Virus genome (UHGV): UHGV-0314203
Direction: 5' to 3' (one strand)
DNA from: a virus
Length of the DNA stretch: 32,844 nt
The notes under the pieces are model-generated. The model saw only the letters and a list, made by a program, of their open reading frames with translations, had not been told where the DNA came from and made no database searches. Shown here one piece after another: positions 1,719 through 13,894 of the stretch. The translations under genes were made by a program, and so were the position numbers. How positions within the stretch are numbered: the first letter of the stretch is position 1; each line of letters opens with the position of its first letter.

Positions 1719-2249
1719 TTACCTTAATTTATCAAGCTCTCGTTTATTTCTTTTATCATGTATATCATTAAGAAATAATATATTACTAGCAATGATACTA
1801 AATAACGCTATTATTTGTAGATATACTAATAACGCTGTGATAAAAAATCCAAACTTGCAGAACATGTGCTTATGCAAGGAAATGAAATCCAGATTTGAAA
1901 ATATAGGTTTCGTTAAATTTATTATAACAATAGAAAATATTACAATAGCTGAAATTATAATGGTTTTCACTATCAGCGTAATTCGCTCAATATCTTTTTC
2001 TGTTTCCTTATGATAGTTTATACTAGTTATTGTTGATGGCTTTACAATTGAACTTACAGCTGCAGGGTAAATATATGCAAGCCAAATACCTGCAATAGTG
2101 AAGATCATTGCAGAAATGTTTTGCAAGGTAGATAAAATATCTTTTATATCTGCATACGTATATTTGTCTCCGAACAAATAAGCAATAGCTATAATTGTTA
2201 GGAGAAAACATATGTGCAAAATTTTAGGTTTTATAATCATACTATGCAC
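1719..2249 (-). CDS. small integral membrane protein, about 4 predicted TM helices (cassette A, gene 2)
   Basis: 176 aa with four long hydrophobic segments (e.g. ILHICFLLTIIAIAYLF, FGFFITALLVYLQIIALFSIIASNILFL); very AT-rich; overlaps the upstream gene by 8 nt. Confidence 0.7.
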   Translation of the reverse strand: MHSMIIKPKILHICFLLTIIAIAYLFGDKYTYADIKDILSTLQNISAMIFTIAGIWLAYIYPAAVSSIVKPSTITSINYHKETEKDIERITLIVKTIIISAIVIFSIVIINLTKPIFSNLDFISLHKHMFCKFGFFITALLVYLQIIALFSIIASNILFLNDIHDKRNKRELDKLR

Positions 2250-3444
2250 CTATTTTATGAATCTGCACTGCTGTATCATTATCAGCTTCTGGTTGTTCTA
2301 TTATATCTTCATTTTTAAAACAATTCACCAAATCATTTCTATGAGCTTTTACTACACTCATTAAATATGAAGAAGAGTAATGTTTGTTTCTGTTAGAAAG
2401 GTCAACGTGAATTTCATGGCGATAAACATATTCATCTAACCAAGTAGTTGAACCATTTTTCCCATTTATTTTGAATCCGATGCGTGCGTGATCATTCCCT
2501 ACATTCTCATTGTTATTTTCTGTACCTTCTGAAATAGGATTATGGTTTTCTATATATTCATCGATGAGTTTAGTGAACTCTTCAGGCGTAGGCGTTCCTT
2601 CGACTAATAATTCAACGCGATGTTTTTTTGATAAAATAGGAGAGCTTCTTGAGAAAACATCTCCAACTGCATCAAATAACTTCTGCCATTTTTCCCGTGT
2701 ATCAGGTATGTTTGTTTCTATTACGTCATGGTAAACAATGTGAGTGATTTTTTTACACAGTTCTTCTATGTTTGCTCCACTCGTGATCATCCTTGTTTGT
2801 TTAGTCTGTACTTTAAAAACTAAACTTTCATCATCACCTTGAGAAAAAAGAACACGTTTGTAATGAACGTCTTCAGGTGAGTCATTACGAGGGCGAGTCA
2901 TATCTATGACTTTTTTATTAGGATGCTCCATCCTAAAGTCAACGTATGCTTTAATATAATGACAGAAAAGATCTGTATCCGTATTAGAACTTGGGAATCG
3001 TATGGATGCAATTTTGTTATACTCTGGAATTACCCAATAGTAGCAAGGTACGCCCCAGATATATTTACCGCCACCTTGAGTATCAGAGGCGGATACAACA
3101 TTATCTGAAGTGCCGTCAATCTTACTTTCAGCATCTATACCTTGAATATTTCCAGAGTTATCACCAAGCGTTTTCCAGATAACAAATAGATAATCTCCTG
3201 TCGTACTGTCATATGAAATATTTTTACAGTATGCTTTTGTTCTTCTATTATTATCCTTTCCCCATGGAACAGATTGTTCAACTGTTCTTGAACAGATCCA
3301 GCTATATAAGTTACACAGAACATGGGATAAGTTCTTTTCGACTAATTCCGGCGATTTGCCTTGTCGTATTTTATAAAGGCCAAACATTTCTAAATCAAAA
3401 AATGTTATAATGCCGCGTTCAGTTTTAAAGTTGGTTTTACTCAT
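2242..3444 (-). CDS. hypothetical 400-aa protein, no recognisable catalytic motif (cassette A, gene 1)
   Basis: Long ORF in AT-rich DNA, same strand as cI and int, 80 bp downstream of the cI stop; Asn/Asp/Lys-rich composition unlike the phage backbone. Confidence 0.7.
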   Translation of the reverse strand: MSKTNFKTERGIITFFDLEMFGLYKIRQGKSPELVEKNLSHVLCNLYSWICSRTVEQSVPWGKDNNRRTKAYCKNISYDSTTGDYLFVIWKTLGDNSGNIQGIDAESKIDGTSDNVVSASDTQGGGKYIWGVPCYYWVIPEYNKIASIRFPSSNTDTDLFCHYIKAYVDFRMEHPNKKVIDMTRPRNDSPEDVHYKRVLFSQGDDESLVFKVQTKQTRMITSGANIEELCKKITHIVYHDVIETNIPDTREKWQKLFDAVGDVFSRSSPILSKKHRVELLVEGTPTPEEFTKLIDEYIENHNPISEGTENNNENVGNDHARIGFKINGKNGSTTWLDEYVYRHEIHVDLSNRNKHYSSSYLMSVVKAHRNDLVNCFKNEDIIEQPEADNDTAVQIHKIGA

Positions 3445-3524: not shown

Positions 3525-4406
3525 TTAATTCGAAATGATTGTGCTTCTTATGCATGCAACTACCTCGATATCAGAAAATGCACATTCAAAGTAAGTTTCT
3601 TTACTTCTGATATTTATCATACCTTTAGGTAGCCTAGTAATTTGTCTGACGGAATAGGTTCCATCAATATTAATTAACCAGTATCCATCTAATACATCAG
3701 AAAATTTCTGATCACAGATGTATGCCACTAAACCATCCTGAACGACAATTGGTGCTGAAAGATTAGCGGGTAAAAATGACGAATCGAAAATATATGAGCC
3801 ACTCTCAACCATTTTACCTGCATTGAGATGAAATTTAGGCAGTTCTTTTACCGATGTTGTGAGAGCATTGTGCTCGCTGCCTTGTCCAGTGGCTAGCCAT
3901 AAAAGAGAATTTCCTGTTTCCAACGAACATTTTATGATCCAATCAGCCGGGAATGTGTCTCGCAAATATCTATTTGCCATAGTGCTTTTAGATACATTCA
4001 GATGGTCGGCAAGTTCCTGTCTTGTTTTAAAGCCATACGCTTTCATTAGCCTGTCTATTGCATCACGTCCGCCTGAGTCCAAATTCAGATCGTTCCCAAT
4101 TGGGGACTTCAGGGTGGTGGCTTGGGAAGCGTGCTGAACCTTTGATGCAGTTGCCTTTGACATAACCGGAGCCTCAGTACTCTGAGGGAATGGTACGCCT
4201 TTTCCGAATGAGAGCCACTCGATAGATGCACCCGTTTCAATTGCACACTGAATTACCCAGTCAGCAGGAAATACGTCACGCATCCAGCGCGTGCCCATAG
4301 TGCTTGCAGATACGTTGAACTGTTCGCACAGAGCTTGCCTTGTCTTGAATCCATACGCTTCAAGCATGCGCGTTATGACTGCTTGTCCTCCGTTTTTGAA
4401 ATTCAT
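3525..4406 (-). CDS. cI: phage 186 CI-type immunity repressor with a tandemly duplicated N-terminal HTH domain
   Basis: 293 aa; two copies of an about 60-aa unit (…MLEAYGFKTRQALCEQFNVSASTMGTRWMRDVFPADWVIQCAIETGASIEWL… and …LMKAYGFKTRQELADHLNVSKSTMANRYLRDTFPADWIIKCSLETGNSLLWL…) plus a C-terminal domain; divergent from the early operon. Confidence 0.75.
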   Translation of the reverse strand: MNFKNGGQAVITRMLEAYGFKTRQALCEQFNVSASTMGTRWMRDVFPADWVIQCAIETGASIEWLSFGKGVPFPQSTEAPVMSKATASKVQHASQATTLKSPIGNDLNLDSGGRDAIDRLMKAYGFKTRQELADHLNVSKSTMANRYLRDTFPADWIIKCSLETGNSLLWLATGQGSEHNALTTSVKELPKFHLNAGKMVESGSYIFDSSFLPANLSAPIVVQDGLVAYICDQKFSDVLDGYWLINIDGTYSVRQITRLPKGMINIRSKETYFECAFSDIEVVACIRSTIISN

Positions 4407-4432
4407 TTATTACGCCTTTGAGTAATTTTTGG

Positions 4433-4461
4433 TTGACACTTCTCAAATGAAGAATTAGTGT
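4433..4461 (+). promoter_or_regulatory. sigma70-like early lytic promoter: TTGACA (4433-4438), 17-nt spacer, TAGTGT (4456-4461)
   Basis: Consensus -35 with a plausible -10, in the cI/early divergent intergenic region, oriented toward the Apl/Cox-like gene. Confidence 0.45.
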
Positions 4462-4530
4462 GTGCGAAAGTGAACTGAACAGGATTAATCACCAGTTACC
4501 ACACATCTTGTTAAACGAGGAATCTTGCAT

Positions 4531-4753
4531 CATGGCTCCACATATTTCAATCACCTTAGCTGTCCCATCTGTTTCTATTGAGAAATACAGTGAACTGACT
4601 GGGTTATCTATCGATACTATCAATGACATGCTGGCTGATGGACGCCTTATTCGCCATCGTCTCCGTAAAGATAAAAAGCGAGAAAAGGTAATGATCAATA
4701 TCGCAGCAATGACCGTTGATGCGCTCTCTGAATGCAATTTGAGTATTAACTAG
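4531..4753 (+). CDS. small Apl/Cox-like excisionase-regulator candidate
   Basis: 74 aa from ATG 4531 with GAGGA 10 nt upstream; first gene of the rightward operon, divergent from cI, as for 186 apl / P2 cox; sequence-level assignment is weak. Confidence 0.45.
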
Positions 4754-4785
4754 TTCCATTTTGGGATACATCAGGGGTGTCGACT

Positions 4786-5295
4786 ATGTTTGATTACCAA
4801 GTTTCCAAACATCCACATTTTGATGAAGCCTGTCGAGTATTCGCACTGCGCCACAACCTGGTGCAACTGGCAGAACGTGCAGGCATGAATGTGCAGATTC
4901 TGCGGAACAAGCTGAACCCAGCTCAACCTCATTTATTAACCGCACCAGAAATCTGGCTGCTTACCGATCTGACTGAAGATTCAACGCTTGTAGACGGTTT
5001 TCTGGCACAGATTCATTGTCTGCCATGTGTACCGATTAATGAGGTGGCAAAAGAGAAACTGCCACATTACGTCATGAGTGCAACCGCAGAGATCGGGCGT
5101 GTTGCTGCAGGTGCGGTATCTGGCGATGTAAAAACCAGTGCAGGTCGTCGTGATGCCATCAGCAGCATTAACTCTGTAACACGACTGATGGCGTTGGCTG
5201 CTGTTTCATTGCAGGCCCGTTTACAGGCTAACCCTGCGATGGCGAGTGCAGTTGATACCGTGACTGGCCTCGGTGCTTCATTCGGTTTGCTGTGA
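4786..5295 (+). CDS. cII: phage 186 CII-like regulatory protein
   Basis: About 169 aa from ATG 4786 ([24 protein letters not shown]…); size and N-terminus match my recollection of 186 CII; position after the apl-like gene. Confidence 0.65.
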
Positions 5296-6586: not shown

Positions 6587-7440
6587 GCACCATCCTGAAA
6601 TGGGCGGGAAATAAAACCGCAATTATGTCCGAACTGAAAAAACACCTTCCTGCTGGCCCGCGACTGGTTGAACCTTTCGCGGGTTCCTGTGCAGTGATGA
6701 TGGAGACGGATTACCCCAGCTATCTGGTTGCGGATATTAATCCTGATTTAATCAACCTCTATAAAAAGGTTGCCGCTGATTGTGAATCGTTTATATCTCG
6801 CGCCAGAGTTTTATTTGAGAACGCAAGCAGGGAGATGGATTATTACAACATAAGGCAGGAGTTTAATTACTCAACTGAAATTACTGATTTCATGAAAGCG
6901 GTATATTTCCTGTATCTCAATCGTCACGGTTACCGTGGTTTATGTCGCTATAACAAGAGCGGGCATTTCAACATTCCCTACGGTAATTATAAAAATCCGT
7001 ATTTCCCTGAAAAAGAAATTCGCGAATTTGCAGAAAAAGCCCAGCGAGCAACGTTTATCTGCGCCAGCTTTGATGAAACGCTGGCGATGTTGAAGGCGGG
7101 GGATGTGGTGTATTGCGATCCGCCGTATGACGGCACGTTTTCCGGTTATCACACTGACGGCTTCACTGAAGATGACCAGTATCACCTGGCATCCGTTCTT
7201 GAACATCGGTCATCAGAAGGACATCCGGTCATTGTTTCTAACAGTGACACATCCCTGATCCGTTCGCTGTATCGCAATTTTATTCACCACTACATCAAGG
7301 CAAAACGCAGCATCGGTGTGGCAGCTGGCGAGGGTAAATCAGCAACAGAAATCATTGCTGTTTCCGGGCCGCGCTGCTGGGTGGGATTTGATTATTCGCG
7401 TGGCGTGGACAGTTCTGCCGTGTACGGAGTACGTGCATGA
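6583..7440 (+). CDS. dam: DNA adenine (N6) methyltransferase, Dam-like orphan methylase
   Basis: 285 aa; N-terminal LKWAGNK…FAGSCAV (AdoMet-binding) and catalytic DPPY (YCDPPYDG) motifs. Confidence 0.85.
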
Positions 7441-9851
7441 GTCATGCCGATATGAACAACTGCTGCGGCTTTAACGAGGCTGCCGCAGCATTCTCATGGA
7501 ACAGCCCGAAAAAGGCCATTAACCCTTATCTGGACCCGGCGGAAGTTGCGCCGGTTTCTGCGCTTTCAAACCTGATCACTCTGTACGCTGCCGATAACGA
7601 GCAGGAACAACTGCGCCGCGAGGCACTGAGTGATCAGGTCTGGGAGCGTTATTTCTTTAATGAATCCCGTGATCCTGTCCAGCGCGAAATGGAGCAGGAT
7701 AAGCTAATTAGCCGGGCAAAGCTGGCGCATGAGCAGCAGCGTTTTAATCCAGACATGGTCATTCTGGCAGATGTCAACGCCCAGCCTTCCCATATCAGCA
7801 AGCCGCTGATGCAACGTATTAAATACTTCAGCAATCTGGGCAGGCCAAAGGCTTATTCCCGCTATTTGCGTGAGACGATTAAGCCATGCCTGGAACGACT
7901 GGAGCATGTACGCGACAGCCAGCTATCTGCATCTTTTCGTTTTATGGCAAGCCATGAAGGGCTGGACGGTCTGCTGATCCTGCCTGAAATGAGTCAGGAT
8001 CAGGTGAAACGCCTGTCCACCCTTGTCGCTGCGCATATGAGCATGTGTCTTGATGCCGCTTGTGGTGATTTGTACGCCTCCGATGATGTTAAGCCGGAAG
8101 AAATCCGCAAGACATGGGAAAAGGTGGCAGCAGAAACCCTGCGACTGGATGTCATACCACCTGCGTTTGAGCAACTCCGCCGGAAAAGAAACCGCCGCAA
8201 ACCTGTGCCCTATGAACTCATTCCGGGTTCGCTGGCGCGTATGTTGTGCGCCGACTGGTGGTACCGGAAATTATGGAAGATGCGTTGCGAATGGCGGGAA
8301 GAGCAGTTGCGTGCTGTCTGTCTGGTCAGCAAAAAAGCATCTCCCTATGTCAGCTATGAAGCCGTGATGCATAAACGTGAGCAGCGCCGTAAGTCGCTGG
8401 AGTTTTTCCGTTCTCATGAACTGGTGAACGAAGACGGCGACACGCTGGACATGGAGGATGTGGTAAACGCCAGCAGCAGCAACCCGGCGCATCGCCGCAA
8501 TGAGATGATGGCCTGCGTTAAAGGTCTGGAGCTTATCGCGGAAATGCGTGGTGACTGCGCCGTTTTCTACACCATCACCTGTCCGTCACGTTTCCATTCC
8601 ACGCTAAATAACGGCAGGCCAAACCTGACCTGGACCAACGCGACAGTAAGACAAAGCAGCGATTATCTGGTCGGCATGTTTGCTGCATTTCGTAAGGCTA
8701 TGCACAAAGCCGGATTGCGCTGGTATGGCGTGCGGGTGGCTGAGCCGCATCATGACGGTACAGTTCACTGGCACCTGTTGTGTTTTATGCGCAAAAAAGA
8801 TCGCCGCGCCATTACTGCTTTGTTGCGTAAGTTTGCCATTCGTGAAGACCGCGAGGAGCTGGGGAATAACACGGGACCACGCTTTAAGTCTGAGTTGATT
8901 AACCCGCGCAAAGGAACGCCGACAAGCTACATCGCGAAATATATCAGCAAGAACATTGACGGGCGTGGTCTGGCTGGCGAGATCAGCAAGGAAACGGGTA
9001 AATCTCTGCGTGATAACGCTGAATACGTGAATGCCTGGGCGTCTTTGCATCGTGTTCAGCAATTCCGCTTCTTTGGCATTCCGGGGCGCCAGGCTTACCG
9101 TGAACTGCGATTGCTGGCTGGTCAGGCGGCAAGGCAACAGGGTGACAAAAAAGCAGGTGCGCCGGTACTGGATAACCCGCGCCTTGATGCAATCCTGGCT
9201 GCTGCTGATGCTGGTTGTTTTGCCACCTACATCATGAAGCAGGGCGGCGTACTGGTTCCCCGCAAATATCACCTCATCAGAACTGCTTATGAAATTAACG
9301 AAGAGCCGACCGCCTATGGCGATCACGGCATTCGTATTTATGGCATCTGGTCACCCATTGCAGAGGGCAAGATCTGCACTCATGCCGTGAAGTGGAAAAT
9401 GGTTCGTAAGGCCGTTGACGTTCAGGAGGCGGCAGCCGACCAGGGCGCTTGCGCCCCTTGGACTCGTGGCAATAACTGTCCCCTTGCTGAAAATTTGAAC
9501 CAACAAGGGAAAGACAAATCAGCTGATGGGGATACCAGGACGGACATTACCCGCATGGATGACAAGGAGTTGCACGATTACCTGCACAGTATGAGCAAAA
9601 AAGAGCGCCGGGAACTGGCTGCAAGGTTACGCCTGGTGAAGCCGAAACGGCGTAAAGACTACAAACAGCGAATTACAGACCATCAGCGACAGCAACTCGT
9701 CTATGAACTGAAGTCCAGAGGATTTGATGGCAGCGAGAAAGAGGTCGATTTACTCCTTCGCGGCGGCAGTATTCCGTCAGGAGCAGGCCTGCGTATCTTC
9801 TATCGGAACCAGCGTTTGCAGGAAGATGATAAGTGGCGAAACCTGTATTAA
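7437..9851 (+). CDS. A: replication initiation endonuclease, P2 gene A type
   Basis: 804 aa, the largest early ORF, at the position of P2 A / 186 A; the internal minus-strand ORFs are antisense artefacts. Confidence 0.8.
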
Positions 9852-9945: not shown

Positions 9946-9961
9946 CTGTAAATATAAACAG
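9946..9961 (+). promoter_or_regulatory. LexA (SOS) box CTGT-N8-ACAG (ctgtaaatataaacag)
   Basis: Perfect CTGT/ACAG half-sites with an 8-nt AT-rich spacer, about 45 nt upstream of the ORF at 10005. Confidence 0.6.
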
Positions 9962-10004
9962 TGGTTAAGTATACAGTATTGCTTGTGGTGTCATAGGAGG
10001 AAAG

Positions 10005-10193
10005 ATGCAGGACTATTTTTTGGAGTCTTTGAAGCTCCAGCGCATTGATTTTTTTCTTAAGCTTGTAGCGGCTAGTGAGTGTAGTGATGAAGAGAAGGGG
10101 CTGGCTTTGCAGTGGGTTTCTGAACTAACAGATGAACTCATGGCAAAAATCAGAACCCACGAATACAACCGCTCAATGGATGTCATCAGCTGA
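10005..10193 (+). CDS. small hypothetical protein (62 aa), first gene of the SOS-controlled pair
   Basis: ATG 10005 with AGGAGG upstream (tcataggaggaaag-ATG); directly downstream of the LexA box. Confidence 0.45.
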   Translation: MQDYFLESLKLQRIDFFLKLVAASECSDEEKGLALQWVSELTDELMAKIRTHEYNRSMDVIS

Positions 10194-10203
10194 GGTGACT
10201 TTT

Positions 10204-10437
10204 ATGCGCATTGAAATAATGATCGATAAAGAGCAGAAGATTAGCCAGTCTACCCTGGACGCCCTTGAATCCGAGCTTTACCGCAATCTGCGCCCCCTGT
10301 ATCCAAAAACGGTAATTCGTATCCGCAAAGGTAGCTCTAACGGTGTGGAACTGACTGGGCTGCAACAGGACGAAGAAAGAAAACAAGTGATGAAAATTAT
10401 GCAGAAGGTGTGGGAAGACGACAGCTGGCTGCATTAA
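10204..10437 (+). CDS. DinI-family protein
   Basis: 77 aa from ATG 10204 (MRIEIMIDKEQ…KIMQKVWEDDSWL), closely following the pattern of E. coli DinI; GAGGTGA 6 nt upstream. Confidence 0.75.
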   Translation: MRIEIMIDKEQKISQSTLDALESELYRNLRPLYPKTVIRIRKGSSNGVELTGLQQDEERKQVMKIMQKVWEDDSWLH

Positions 10438-10746: not shown

Positions 10747-10929
10747 ATGGAATACTTAAGCGAAATCATTAGTTTTTTGGCAGGGGCGGGTATCAGTTGG
10801 GCTATTACTTTCAATGTGTATAATTACAAAGTAAAGCAAATTTGTATGAACCAAAGTTCTCCCATTCAAAATGGAAATACAGTGACAAACGGAAGCATTG
10901 TCGGTAGAGATCAGACTAATTCTCACTAA
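10747..10929 (+). CDS. small single-TM protein (60 aa) ending in an NGSIVGxxQTN motif (cassette B, gene 1)
   Basis: ATG 10747 with GGAGG upstream; hydrophobic IISFLAGAGISWAITFNVY; the C-terminal motif recurs at the start of the next ORF. Confidence 0.5.
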   Translation: MEYLSEIISFLAGAGISWAITFNVYNYKVKQICMNQSSPIQNGNTVTNGSIVGRDQTNSH

Positions 10930-10942
10930 GGGAGTGATTGGT

Positions 10943-11509
10943 GTGTTTAGTAAACAGGAGCAATCAGGTAATAGAGTAAGAAATGGGAGTATTGTTGGAG
11001 GGAGTCAAACAAACCACATTACCAATATAGTTCGTAGTAGTAATCGAACTTTAGAGCGTTTGTACCAAAAGTTCTCTCAAGAAGATGGAACTATGGGGGG
11101 GCAGGATTTTTGTGATAAGTTAAAGCACTATTTAGCCTCGGATACCAATCCAGATATAAGAGATTTAGCTACAAAGCTAACTGATAGTGATAGAACTGAA
11201 TTAATTTACTTTGCAACTGCTCTTAAAGAGCAAGCCCTCAAGGCGATAATGAAGTGCCAATCTTCCAAAACCGCACAAGAAATATATGCGTTTATTCTTG
11301 ATAAAATTCATGCTGATTTTATGCTCAAAATTATACCTCTTATTCAGAAGGATGAGGACCGAGTAATTGTTGATGAAAAAATTTCATTGGTATTAGAAAA
11401 TATTAGTGAAATGTTGGGCGATAATTTGTTAAACTTATCCGAAAAGGATCTTTTGGGACTGTTGTATTTTTTAGGCGGAAATTGTTATATAAGGTGGGAT
11501 AAATGTTAG
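10943..11509 (+). CDS. hypothetical mostly alpha-helical protein (about 188 aa; cassette B, gene 2)
   Basis: GTG 10943 with AAGGGAG 8 nt upstream (the ORF track starts it at TTG 10898); N-terminus repeats the NGSIVGxxQTN motif; stop overlaps the next start. Confidence 0.55.
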   Translation: MFSKQEQSGNRVRNGSIVGGSQTNHITNIVRSSNRTLERLYQKFSQEDGTMGGQDFCDKLKHYLASDTNPDIRDLATKLTDSDRTELIYFATALKEQALKAIMKCQSSKTAQEIYAFILDKIHADFMLKIIPLIQKDEDRVIVDEKISLVLENISEMLGDNLLNLSEKDLLGLLYFLGGNCYIRWDKC

Positions 11510-12003
11510 TTTATCATCCAGCATATGATGCCTATCATTGTCTATTTAGAATGATGGCAATTATGGAAAATACAAATCGGCTTGAGATTGATAAGCTTAA
11601 AATATTGGATTTTTACATTTTATTTCCTGCGTTATTAAGTGAAGTGAAAATGCCGAGAGAATTTATTAAAATTAAAAAAACAGCAAAGCTACATCATAAT
11701 GAATATCATGATCCATTGAGTCCAAGGATTATTTTCAAGGAAATGCGTCAAATACAGGATGCAGCACTAAAATGTATGCTTGCGACTGGTTATATTGATT
11801 CTGATGATTTCAGCAATGGTTTTGTCTCAAGAACAAATAAACAATTACCACTGAACCTAGCCTTAGAAATGGGCGTTTTTTTAGAGCGCAAAGAACCGTT
11901 TTCATCTTTCATTACACAAAAGATGGCTAAATTTCATCTGACTGGACCTGATGGATTGAAGGCTAGAACTAAACTTATGGAGTATAGATATGACACTTAT
12001 TAA
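11503..12003 (+). CDS. hypothetical protein (166 aa; cassette B, gene 3)
   Basis: ATG 11503 with AAGGTGGG upstream; overlaps gene 2 by 7 nt and gene 4 by 14 nt (translational coupling). Confidence 0.65.
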   Translation: MLVYHPAYDAYHCLFRMMAIMENTNRLEIDKLKILDFYILFPALLSEVKMPREFIKIKKTAKLHHNEYHDPLSPRIIFKEMRQIQDAALKCMLATGYIDSDDFSNGFVSRTNKQLPLNLALEMGVFLERKEPFSSFITQKMAKFHLTGPDGLKARTKLMEYRYDTY

Positions 12004-13894
12004 GCCTACTCTTATTGTAACCAGATTAACAGTTTTTCAACACGGACATCGTGCATTTGATTGTGAATTCCACAAAGGTGTTAACATTATTCGTGGGCGA
12101 AATAGTTCTGGTAAAACTACAATAATGGATATGCTGGCATTTTCATTGGGAGCTGAAAATATCAGGTGGAAACCACAGGCTTTGAAATGCACTAGAACAA
12201 TCGTTGAAGTGCTTCTCAATAATGAGAAAGCATGCTTTAAACGAGAGATATCTATTGAGCAAATGCGACCTCTTTATATTTATTGGGGAGCGATGGATAA
12301 GGCTTTGAATGCTGGGGAACACGAATGGGAATTATACCCATTCAAGAGAACTGAGAGTAAAATTAGCTTCACCCAAGCTATTTTCAATGCATTATCAATG
12401 CCCTTGGCACAAGGTGCTGGTTCTTCTAATTTGACATTGCATCAGATTTTACGTGTCTTGTATGCAGATCAGCCGTCGTTACATAGTCCAATTTTTCGAT
12501 TTGACAGATTTGATAATGCTCTTACCCGTGAGACGGTAGGTGGATACTTATGTGGTGTTTATAATGATGAGTTGTACAATGCACAACTTTCTTTAAGAGA
12601 TGTTGAGACCGAACTAACAAAGAAAGTTACTGAATTAAAAAGTATCTTTACTGTATTAGGTAGATCTGGACAGGCTCCAGATTTACAAGGTATTGATGAG
12701 AAAATAAAGCATCTAAATAAATTGAGAGCTATTGAGAATGTAAAACTAACAAATAGAGCTATTATAACTAATGAAGAAGGGGCTGATTCTGAAAAACGAA
12801 TGGGTACTATCAGGGAGGAACTCAATGAAGCTAAAAGGAAATTATCTTCCCTAAAAGATAAAATCCAATCTTTGGATTTTGAAATTTCAGATTCTGATAT
12901 GTTTATATCAGAATTAAATGAGCGGCTAAAAAACTTAGAACAGTCTGGAGAAACGCGTGCTATATTTGATAGTATGAATTTTGATTTTTGCCCTAGTTGT
13001 CTTTCCAAAATAGATAAGGCTCATAATGATCATGTTTGTCATCTATGTAAAGTGGAACAATTAGATGATAAAGCTGAAAATCAGTTATTAAGAATGAAAA
13101 ATGAATTAACTCTTCAAATCAAAGAATCTCTTCAATTAATGGATAGAAGAAAAGAAGAGTTGGTAAGATTAAAGCGAGATGTTCCTTTAGCTGAGAGTGA
13201 ATTAAAAAGGCTTGAACAGGATTATTTCAAAGAGTCACACTATTGGTCTTCACCGCAAGAGTTAGCTGTAGGTAAAATATATAGGGAAATTGGACGGCTT
13301 GATGAAGAAATAAAAAGAGCTTATGAAGATAAGAAGCTTATTGTTGTTATTAATGAACTTCAAGAGCGTCGCGATGAACTTCAGGCGGAAAAAAATAGAC
13401 TTGATGATCTTATTGAACTTTATGAAGAAAAAGAGGAAGTTCTTAAAGATAAAATTTATGCTTCAGTGAGCTCAATAGCACAAGAGCTTTTACAAGAAGA
13501 TTTGCCTTTGCAAAAAGAGTTTATGTCTCCTGAAAGTGTGGAGTTTAGTTTTACTGATAATAGCGTTTATGTGAATGGTAGTAAGAACTTTTCTGAAAGT
13601 TCAGCTGTAGTATTAAGGCATATATTCCATTTGGCACTACTTTCAGCAAGTATAGAGAACCACTCAATGCGACTTCCAAGATTTATGATGTTAGATGGGA
13701 TCGACGATGGTGGAATGGAAAAAGAACGGAGTCACAATTTACAGGAAATAATAATTGATGAGTGCTCACGTTATGAACATGATTATCAGTTGATATTTGC
13801 AACATCTGAAATAAATCCCAAATACAGTGAGAGTGAATATATTGTTGGTGAGTATTATTCGCCAGATAATTATTCATTGAAAATAATTGAGTGA
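11990..13894 (+). CDS. SMC/Rad50/RecF-like ABC ATPase with a long coiled coil and paired CxxC motifs (cassette B, gene 4)
   Basis: 634 aa; N-terminal Walker A GRNSSGKTT in an SMC_N-like context; central Glu/Lys/Leu-rich coiled coil; CPSC-x14-CHLC at 12989-13048; C-terminal signature-like FSESS and Walker-B-like FMMLDGIDD. Confidence 0.8.
   Translation: MTLIKPTLIVTRLTVFQHGHRAFDCEFHKGVNIIRGRNSSGKTTIMDMLAFSLGAENIRWKPQALKCTRTIVEVLLNNEKACFKREISIEQMRPLYIYWGAMDKALNAGEHEWELYPFKRTESKISFTQAIFNALSMPLAQGAGSSNLTLHQILRVLYADQPSLHSPIFRFDRFDNALTRETVGGYLCGVYNDELYNAQLSLRDVETELTKKVTELKSIFTVLGRSGQAPDLQGIDEKIKHLNKLRAIENVKLTNRAIITNEEGADSEKRMGTIREELNEAKRKLSSLKDKIQSLDFEISDSDMFISELNERLKNLEQSGETRAIFDSMNFDFCPSCLSKIDKAHNDHVCHLCKVEQLDDKAENQLLRMKNELTLQIKESLQLMDRRKEELVRLKRDVPLAESELKRLEQDYFKESHYWSSPQELAVGKIYREIGRLDEEIKRAYEDKKLIVVINELQERRDELQAEKNRLDDLIELYEEKEEVLKDKIYASVSSIAQELLQEDLPLQKEFMSPESVEFSFTDNSVYVNGSKNFSESSAVVLRHIFHLALLSASIENHSMRLPRFMMLDGIDDGGMEKERSHNLQEIIIDECSRYEHDYQLIFATSEINPKYSESEYIVGEYYSPDNYSLKIIE

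Follow-up and report, generated by a model that had tools for sequence, protein, structure and literature searches.

The CI repressor of phage 186 is a model of cooperative repression, in which DNA is wrapped and looped on a protein wheel built of dimers (a 14-mer), and each chain of this protein carries a single DNA-binding head. Two heads on one chain are found elsewhere: in single-chain 434 repressors a covalent link lets two heads read DNA as a unit, and the POU domain holds two helix-turn-helix (HTH) modules on a flexible linker. Wmk of the Wolbachia prophage WO likewise has two HTH domains and a flexible linker; both POU and Wmk belong to unrelated families with unrelated functions and serve as analogies only. 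Here we analyze the virus genome UHGV-0314203, a stretch of 32,844 nucleotides referred to below as the window, which is a 186-like (Peduoviridae) prophage. Its cI gene (3525-4406, minus strand, 293 aa plus stop) lies between int and a divergent apl-cII operon, as in 186, and was identified from its open reading frame (ORF), Pfam, and RefSeq as encoding a 186-type immunity repressor with two HTH units per chain.

In the searchable literature, which is incomplete, we found no paper describing or testing a two-HTH 186-type CI; in a 2011 survey of P2-like regulatory genes, nothing beyond "longer couplers" and longer C-terminal domains is noted. The lambda-186 hybrid repressor (PDB 7JVT), which emerged as a structural match of the model described below, resembles this protein in that an HTH head is exchangeable on the 186 C-terminal scaffold, but it is a laboratory construct, and in contrast to both the hybrid and the single-chain 434 proteins the natural CI keeps an oligomerization domain together with two different heads.

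Two HTH Heads Precede a 186-type C-terminal Domain

Two stretches of the CI sequence match PF07022 (Phage_CI_repr; 197 bits summed, with a cutoff of 22), residues 189-285 match PF16452 (Phage_CI_C, 90 bits), and PHROGs labels the protein a "transcriptional repressor." When residues 1-102 were compared with residues 103-293 by BLASTP, residues 1-70 aligned on 107-176 with 38/70 identities (54%, E 9e-32). The solved 186 CI (2fjr, 189 aa) aligns with residues 114-284 only, so that the first head and the linker behind it form the extra part. Along the minus strand the chain divides into HTH1 (4197-4406, residues 1-70), with the recognition helix S-A-S-T-M-G-T-R-W-M-R-D (SASTMGTRWMRD); an inter-head linker of 38 residues (4083-4196, residues 71-108), which holds the relic N-terminal tail of a 198-aa-type CI at about residues 96-108; HTH2 (3873-4082, residues 109-178), with the recognition helix S-K-S-T-M-A-N-R-Y-L-R-D (SKSTMANRYLRD), on which the N-terminal domain of 186 CI aligns; and a 186-type C-terminal oligomerization domain (CTD; 3528-3872, residues 179-293), assigned from PF16452 and a fold match.

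An AlphaFold2 model, computed from an alignment of 41 two-HTH homologues (mean predicted local distance difference test, pLDDT, 81; predicted template modeling score 0.49), has five-helix bundles at residues 7-67 and 113-173 and a β-rich CTD at 186-291. The helices of HTH1 (residues 7-67) reach a pLDDT of about 85-92, and the 32 linker residues 75-106 fall below 50 and are disordered. The model is thus one of three confident modules with no defined mutual orientation, and no fixed contact between the heads is predicted. By Foldseek, the modeled CTD superposes on that of 186 CI (2fkd_A) with a template modeling (TM) score of 0.94 and a root mean square deviation of 1.2 Å over 109 columns, with the CTDs of LexA and lambda CI appearing as distant structural neighbors only (TM about 0.6, 10-14% identity). 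A Pfam search gave no Peptidase_S24 match at E ≤ 1, which by this measure places the protein outside the self-cleaving LexA/lambda CI class.

The two-HTH 186-type architecture in this phage is thereby confirmed. The original prediction had proposed, from the letters at 3882-4379 (residues about 10-175), two homologous HTH units followed by a C-terminal domain, and Pfam, BLASTP, and AlphaFold2 all place them there. It had also set this 293-aa protein against a single-domain 186 CI, which proved correct: relative to 186 CI (2FJR and 2FKD; GenBank U32222) the protein shares the PF07022 HTH family and the CTD fold, but has two heads and a 38-residue linker where 186 CI has one HTH in a chain of 192 aa, at an identity of about 28-35%. 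That the second unit might be of a different fold is ruled out by the two five-helix bundles of the model, and that single-HTH relatives are mis-annotated longer proteins is ruled out because the genes of these relatives begin right next to the operator region and the divergent apl.

The ORF is intact in 12 complete Escherichia coli genomes at a DNA identity of at least 99%; among 5,426 complete E. coli genomes, 12 hold near-identical cI regions and 19 more hold versions that are 80-95% identical. The RefSeq protein WP_001682733.1 (293 aa, "phage repressor protein CI") stems from a 99.6% identical E. coli prophage. An in-frame internal ATG at cI codon M82 (4161-4163), with GAGG 8 nt upstream, would yield a one-headed isoform of 212 aa; this ATG is found in the sister lineage L010 and missing in the sister lineage L008, so it is unconserved and probably not functional.

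Two-HTH CIs Are Abundant under a Generic Name

Among the best 120 clusters at 90% identity together with the query CI, two HTH units were counted in 47 proteins and one in 74, and the lengths are bimodal (186-229 and 291-330 aa). Two heads are likewise encoded by 44 of the 177 cI ORFs in loci fetched from genomes and viral contigs. When distant representatives of 285-358 aa (27-36% identical) from a 50%-identity library were tested, all 10 had PF07022 twice and 9 of the 10 had PF16452 as well. The two-HTH CIs comprise at least three HTH1 lineages and are annotated simply as "repressor CI," or as "repressor protein CI" in the Klebsiella Kapieceevirus phages that encode them. The two-HTH CI is therefore abundant in databases under a generic name, and the protein studied here is a chimeric sub-type with an HTH1 lineage unlike that of the main clade.

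That main group, which we call the N-clade, is found in Klebsiella Kapieceevirus phages and enterobacterial prophages (e.g. QBP27897.1 of phage ST11-OXA48phi15.3, and phage 4LV2017). Its members resemble the query in their two PF07022 units and PF16452, in linker length and gene context, and in having an HTH2 of the 198-type lineage, but differ in an HTH1 lineage of their own (recognition helix SQSTMANRYARD, as opposed to SASTMGTRWMRD), in an overall identity of 43-49%, in the extra N-terminal tail that many of them have, which begins at the -35 element of the promoter pR, and in their TCACA-WWW-CGG operators. In the 198-aa single-HTH loci (L006, L014, L017-L020, L105, and others) the cI start overlaps the pR -35 element (ATGTCAAC, read as Met-Ser-Thr), and one operator palindrome lies within the first 10 cI codons. 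The long N-terminal extension of the N-clade (L001, L130-L147) starts at the same ATGTCAAC, which makes the true N-clade start codon ambiguous; GenBank uses a later ATG for QBP27897.1.

Four further proteins, P0107 (229 aa), P0072 (257 aa), L023 (229 aa), and L162 (237 aa), lack a full CTD behind their two HTH units or have only part of HTH1, and may be pseudogenes or mis-called genes.

The Two Heads Resemble Different Single-HTH Repressors

Head lineages were judged from a tree of all HTH units, from identity statistics, and from profile scoring, and all three were concordant. HTH1 is 83-89% identical to the sole HTH of the 204-206-aa CIs P0113, P0099, and P0101 (89% to P0113), only 51-62% identical to the HTH1 of the N-clade, which is to say of most two-headed proteins, and 54% identical to its own HTH2; its profile scores are 167 bits on the P0113 type and 117 on the N-clade HTH1. 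HTH2 is 75-79% identical to the HTH of the 197/198-aa single-HTH CIs (P0005 and P0090) and groups with them. Residues about 96-293 in fact match a 198-aa-type CI from end to end, its N-terminal tail included (ATTLKSPIGNDLNLDSGG, which aligns with MSTSKYPIGDGMTFESGG of P0090), and the P0005-type CI is 73% identical to them over its whole length. In a third HTH1 lineage, that of the Edwardsiella-type two-HTH proteins, the nearest relatives are single-HTH CIs of 186-189 aa. Because each head is much closer to a different single-HTH repressor than to its partner, these comparisons indicate that CI is chimeric, a fusion of modules, or else goes back to an old duplication after which modules were exchanged. 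Of the tandem duplication originally proposed, the homology of the units stands and a recent duplication in situ does not.

The same mosaic is apparent at the DNA level. The window from 4198 to 4861 (HTH1, the intergenic region, apl, and the start of cII) is contiguous with the P0113-type locus at 71% DNA identity. P0113 and P0099 (206 aa), with a head 89% identical to HTH1 and a collinear apl-operator-HTH region, differ from the query in having one head. With the P0005-type locus, HTH2 plus the CTD (75%) and apl (79%) align but the operators do not; P0005 and P0090 (197-198 aa) are again one-headed, and their operator set differs from that of the P0113 type. A two-headed relative, P0003, is 98.6% identical to the query in HTH1 and 82% in the tail and HTH2, but only 27% identical in the CTD, with synonymous divergence (dS) of 0.3-0.6 in the heads and at saturation in the CTD, whereas the query CTD is 77% identical to that of the single-HTH P0005. 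These identities show that the CTD is exchanged separately, with operators, HTH1, linker, and HTH2 being passed on together. Between HTH1 and its P0113-type relatives synonymous sites are saturated at a nonsynonymous divergence (dN) of 0.07, which makes the fusion an old one.

We also considered the linker as a read-through relic of a 198-type pR and operator (ATGTCAA at M82 and a -10-like AGTACT). Alignment of linker DNA to the upstream regions of single-HTH genes scored about as shuffled sequences do (p about 0.17), MAFFT chose another register, and the idea was dropped.

Both Heads Are Conserved

In comparisons of the window with L010 and L008, respectively, omega was 0 and 0.02 for HTH1 and 0.02 and 0.125 for HTH2, compared with 0.32 and 0.44 for the CTD and nearly neutral values of 0.55 and 0.72 for the linker. 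The three query-type lineages share the same two recognition helices, SASTMGTRWMRD and SKSTMANRYLRD, without a difference. These values indicate strong purifying selection on both heads, which argues against an idle head.

The Switch Region Has the Layout of Single-HTH Relatives

Switch regions were anchored at the -35 core of pR (GTCAA in the cI sense), which is invariant in every class aligned. The putative pR of the window (4433-4461, plus strand, directed towards apl) was recognized by eye and by conservation, with TTGACA at 4433-4438, a 17-nt spacer, and TAGTGT at 4456-4461; a generic promoter scan of the window did not report it. According to its GenBank record, the three-site CI region of 186 spans -37 to +19 of this anchor with the central operator TATCTCCCAATTGAGAGATA at -9; of the distal sites, FL is within cI at +270 and FR is where apl meets cII. 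Single-HTH relatives have operator-like palindromes centered at about -39, -9, and +20.

In the window the candidate central operator (the "-9" site, 4439-4454, cI-sense TTCTTCATTTGAGAAG) occupies the pR spacer, at the same anchored position as the central operator of 186. It is 12-13/17 identical to the -9 sites of single-HTH phages with an HTH1-type helix (CTTTCCATTTGCGAAG, CTTCTCAAATGCGAAG, and CTCTTCAAATACGAAG), which also have intragenic palindromes at +217 to +259 (TCTTCAATTGAAGA, ATCTCAAATGAGAA, and TTTCCTTATGGAAA), and both of its halves equal halves of the intragenic sites of two such loci, L002 and L012. A palindrome scan placed the candidate "+20" operator (4409-4426, cI-sense ATTACTCAAAGGCGTAAT) between the pR -35 element and the cI start, where it is homologous to ATTTCCCGAGGCGTAAT and TTTTCTCAAAGGCGGATT of HTH1-type single-HTH loci. 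The "-39" region (4462-4480, over the pR start; cI-sense GTTCAGTTCACTTTCGCAC) is an uncertain operator with TTCAC half-sites; TTCAC is also the half-site of 186 FL and FR. The 8-mer CAGTTCAC occurs six times in the window as against 1.0 expected (0 of 100 shuffles reached six), on the minus strand at 4470-4477 and 4590-4597, 120 bp apart in the switch and apl, and also at 8761, 9100, 14513, and 18450.

Farther from pR, the intragenic palindrome GTTCCCAATTGGGGAC (4092-4107, in codons of the linker and HTH2 tail) is a candidate FL-like distal operator or a relic. It is the sole match in the 32.8-kb window to the operator pattern of the 198-type (HTH2-type) phages, GTNCCCAANNGGGNAC, its position is homologous to the +11/+14 operator of the 198-aa singles, and the single-HTH locus L167 has GTTCCCAATTGGGAAC over pR. 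Its distance from the pR -35 element, about 336 bp, is comparable to that of the intragenic FL of 186, which is also a distal site about 300 bp from pR. The consensus TYYYCWNNWGRRRA has three exact matches in the window, compared with 0.30 expected and with 0 of 100 shuffles reaching three; these are the "-9" site, the intragenic palindrome (4093-4106), and a probably fortuitous one at 11072. An operator-like site inside apl (4571-4584) has one mismatch to TYYYCWNNWGRRRA and the same relative position as in HTH1-type single-HTH loci, although its conservation could instead reflect the apl coding sequence.

Candidate sites in apl, at pR, and within the cI gene are thus common to the window and to the HTH1-type singles, and the change in operator spacing that had been suggested for a two-headed repressor is not supported: the layout of candidate operators at about -39, -9, and +20 with additional sites in apl and cI equals that of the single-HTH relatives. 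It does differ from that of 186, whose three pR sites lie within 57 bp, about two turns apart, whereas the candidates here and in closer relatives are about 30 bp apart. The other consequence suggested, a change of immunity specificity, may plausibly follow. Pattern searches for the 186-type FL/FR site (ATTCAC-N5-GTGAAT) and the 186 pR-type site TCTCNCAANNGNGAGA gave nothing near the switch beyond chance, a search for the P0113-type palindrome with three mismatches gave near-chance results, and no HTH2-type palindrome was found in the window's own pR region.

In the N-clade the -39 and +20 sites are a near-constant asymmetric TCACA-WWW-CGG in a single orientation, and the -9 site varies along with the HTH2 helix, ATRY types having GTTCACATAAAGAAT as the ATRY singles do. 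This covariation is only suggestive that both heads read their own switch in the N-clade, since the lineages may not be independent.

Three other repeats were seen near these sites. A perfect 16-bp palindrome, GCAAATAGATATTTGC, at 3962-3977 consists of codons of the HTH2 recognition helix (A-N-R-Y-L-R). CCCTCAG-AGTA-CTGAGGC at 4171-4188 in the linker (+219) lies near the position of the intragenic operator of the HTH1-type singles and is unconserved in L010 and L008. The HTH1-type single-HTH loci L002, L012, and L178-L183 have, about 45 bp from the pR -35 element on the apl side, an inverted repeat with 7-bp arms and compensatory changes in both (GTGAACA-N13-TGTTCGC versus GTGAGCA-N12-TGCTCAC), which could serve as an operator with wide spacing or form a hairpin in the RNA of the early transcript.

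Possible Roles of the Two Heads

Our preferred reading, to which we give somewhat less than an even chance, is of a modular two-headed CI in which recognition of the pR operators falls to HTH1 and a further specificity to HTH2, on an oligomerizing 186-type CTD. The CTD would build dimers and probably 186-like wheels, each dimer presenting a pair of HTH2 heads beside the scaffold and a pair of flexibly tethered HTH1 heads. HTH1 would read the co-inherited operators at pR (-9 at 4439-4454 and +20 at 4409-4426) and so set the phage's own immunity, and HTH2 would provide the second specificity, its best cognate site in the genome being the palindrome at 4092-4107, at an FL-like distance from pR. 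We infer this assignment of heads to sites from their resemblance to the relatives' sites, and likewise infer looping by CI between pR and the distal site, whereby one oligomer could hold both simultaneously. HTH2 might also recognize operators of 198-type phages or make extra contacts in the switch. Induction would probably depend on the SOS response, by way of a LexA-controlled Tum-like module like that of 186.

Several points weigh against this proposal. Wheel formation is assumed from similarity of the CTD fold alone, and the assignment of operators is blurred. We attempted it with a library of the relatives' sites and set the result aside, the best matches of the window sites being 10-12/16, about chance for a library of this size, and the semi-global identities noisy; the "+20" site does not discriminate between operator classes; and the TYYYCWNNWGRRRA consensus was picked after inspection of the sites, so that its 10-fold enrichment may be inflated. 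The sister lineages L010 and L008 have not maintained the palindrome at 4092-4107, which is degraded there, and we no longer regard it as a conserved intragenic operator; lying in inherited coding sequence, it may be what is left of the ancestral +11/+14 operator. In the N-clade, moreover, the HTH1 helix is nearly constant and the HTH2 helix varies, which is a poor fit to a general rule that HTH1 sets immunity.

The original prediction had suggested an intramolecular pseudo-dimer, in which the two heads of one chain take both half-sites, so that a monomer acts like a single-headed dimer and operators can become asymmetric. The linker of about 38 residues is long enough for adjacent half-sites, both heads are co-inherited with the operators, and the "-9" site of the window has two unlike halves (TCTTCA and TTCTCA), the right one, TGAGAA, being like the half-sites of singles with an HTH2-like helix. 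The N-clade loci with their asymmetric TCACA-WWW-CGG in one orientation at three positions, as against the symmetric GTNCCCA..TGGGNAC of the 198-aa singles, are also in keeping with such an arrangement. Asymmetry proved, however, to be no hallmark of two-headed CIs, since single-HTH relatives have it too (L033, TTCAC-TTTT-CGAGAT) with equal three-site spacing. Together with chance-level site-similarity scores, a wholly kept CTD of the dimer- and wheel-forming kind, and an AlphaFold model with a disordered linker and no packing of head on head, this makes the pseudo-dimer an unlikely explanation. We consider it rather unlikely, too, that HTH1 runs the phage's own switch and HTH2 with the CTD is a 198-type repressor retained because it blocks superinfecting, heteroimmune 198-type phages and so widens the immunity of the lysogen. 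Residues about 96-293 do amount to a full 198-aa-type CI with a constrained, intact recognition helix one residue off that of P0005, the window's pR region has no HTH2-type palindrome, and 198-type phages such as Escherichia phage vB_EcoM-813R9 share hosts with this one. But exchange of the CTD leaves HTH2 joined to HTH1 and the operators, a linkage that suggests HTH2 has a part in the switch of the phage itself, and the pairing of one HTH1 with several HTH2 types in the N-clade is not obviously explained by cross-immunity.

Finally, one head might no longer bind DNA. It could be there as a spacer, it could offer the Tum-like antirepressor a decoy or docking site, or it could be a tolerated recombination relic. 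The presence of the LexA-controlled Tum-like module, the want of a clear HTH2 cognate site at pR, and the decay of the intragenic palindrome in sister lineages would all suit an idle head. Both heads, however, have omega ≤ 0.13 against saturated or substantial synonymous change, with conserved recognition helices, and the two-HTH architecture persists over many diverged clusters, whereas a relic would be lost, single-headed forms being viable; we therefore judge an idle head very improbable.

Prophage Context

Around the repressor gene the order is that of 186. The int gene lies at 607-1638, and between it and cI PADLOC reports a candidate PDC-M18 A/B defense pair (1719-3444, minus strand; A, 400 aa, 1.3e-35; B, 176 aa, 6e-24). 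The same slot is filled differently in relatives: L010 has AAA_15 and DUF4276 genes (PARIS-like in their domains), L005 has a SNIPE/T5orf172 protein, L008 and L015 have unknown genes, and in P0113-type loci the slot is empty. It looks like a defense hotspot. On the other side, divergent from cI, are apl (4532-4753, plus strand; Cox-like excisionase/repressor, phrog_575, 3e-28), a position taken by 73-aa genes in all related loci, and cII (4777-5295, plus strand; Phage_CP76, PF06892, 2.2e-41). Past cII come DUF5347, TraR, repA (7437-9851), the LexA box with the DinI-like module, an ABC-3C/Lamassu-like set, portal, terminase, and structural genes.

From about position 4577, inside apl, the window is 95% identical in DNA to Klebsiella phage 4LV2017 and E. 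coli phage vB_EcoM-813R9, which are of other immunity types. This stretch spans cII, fil, and the methylase region, and cI and its operators are unrelated to theirs at the DNA level; these alignments put an abrupt mosaic boundary at the immunity module.

A probable SOS-induction module (9946-10437, plus strand) begins with the only perfect LexA-box match in the window (CTGTAAATATAAACAG, 9946-9961), 45 bp upstream of a 62-aa ORF (10005-10193; phrog_698, of unknown function in PHROGs). A DinI-like gene (10204-10437, PF06183) begins 11 nt after that ORF and covers positions 71-148 of the 151-position phrog_189 profile, its C-terminal half, so that the module looks like a Tum-type antirepressor split in two genes. 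In this respect, too, the locus resembles 186 with its LexA-controlled DinI/Tum-type module, and induction would probably run through a LexA-controlled, putative Tum-like antirepressor. Between repA and the portal gene lies the ABC-3C/Lamassu-like defense system of three genes (10898-13894, plus strand), encoding proteins of 203 aa with an ABC-3C CTD9 domain (PF20285), 166 aa with a weak LmuC match, and 634 aa matching LmuB (4.5e-43).

Implications

Given how well the 186 CI family is known, the two-headed form will seem notable rather than astonishing to a specialist in 186 and P2 phages. Two different, selectively kept heads per chain nevertheless alter the valency, and possibly the specificity, of the 186-type CI machine, and such proteins are encoded by prophages of E. 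coli, Klebsiella, and Salmonella as well as in many clusters farther removed. Were one head to prove idle, the two-headed CI would be only an annotation curiosity.

A bolder reading, which we think improbable, is that this CI is truly bispecific, with HTH1 acting on pR and HTH2 on an intragenic FL-like operator, in the repression of heteroimmune 186-like phages, or both, and that two-headed CIs are natural intermediates toward new immunity specificities. If so, a second head and new operators would be gained with the old head kept, without a non-immune stage, after which heads, operators, and scaffolds would be shuffled or lost. The module pattern described here, with its distinct HTH1 lineages, co-inheritance of heads and operators, and scaffold swaps, makes the diversification of repressor-operator pairs into immunity types testable, and the protein does the same for the valency of the CI wheel. 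The two-headed CI also bears on the prediction of superinfection immunity among prophages and offers parts for synthetic repressors.

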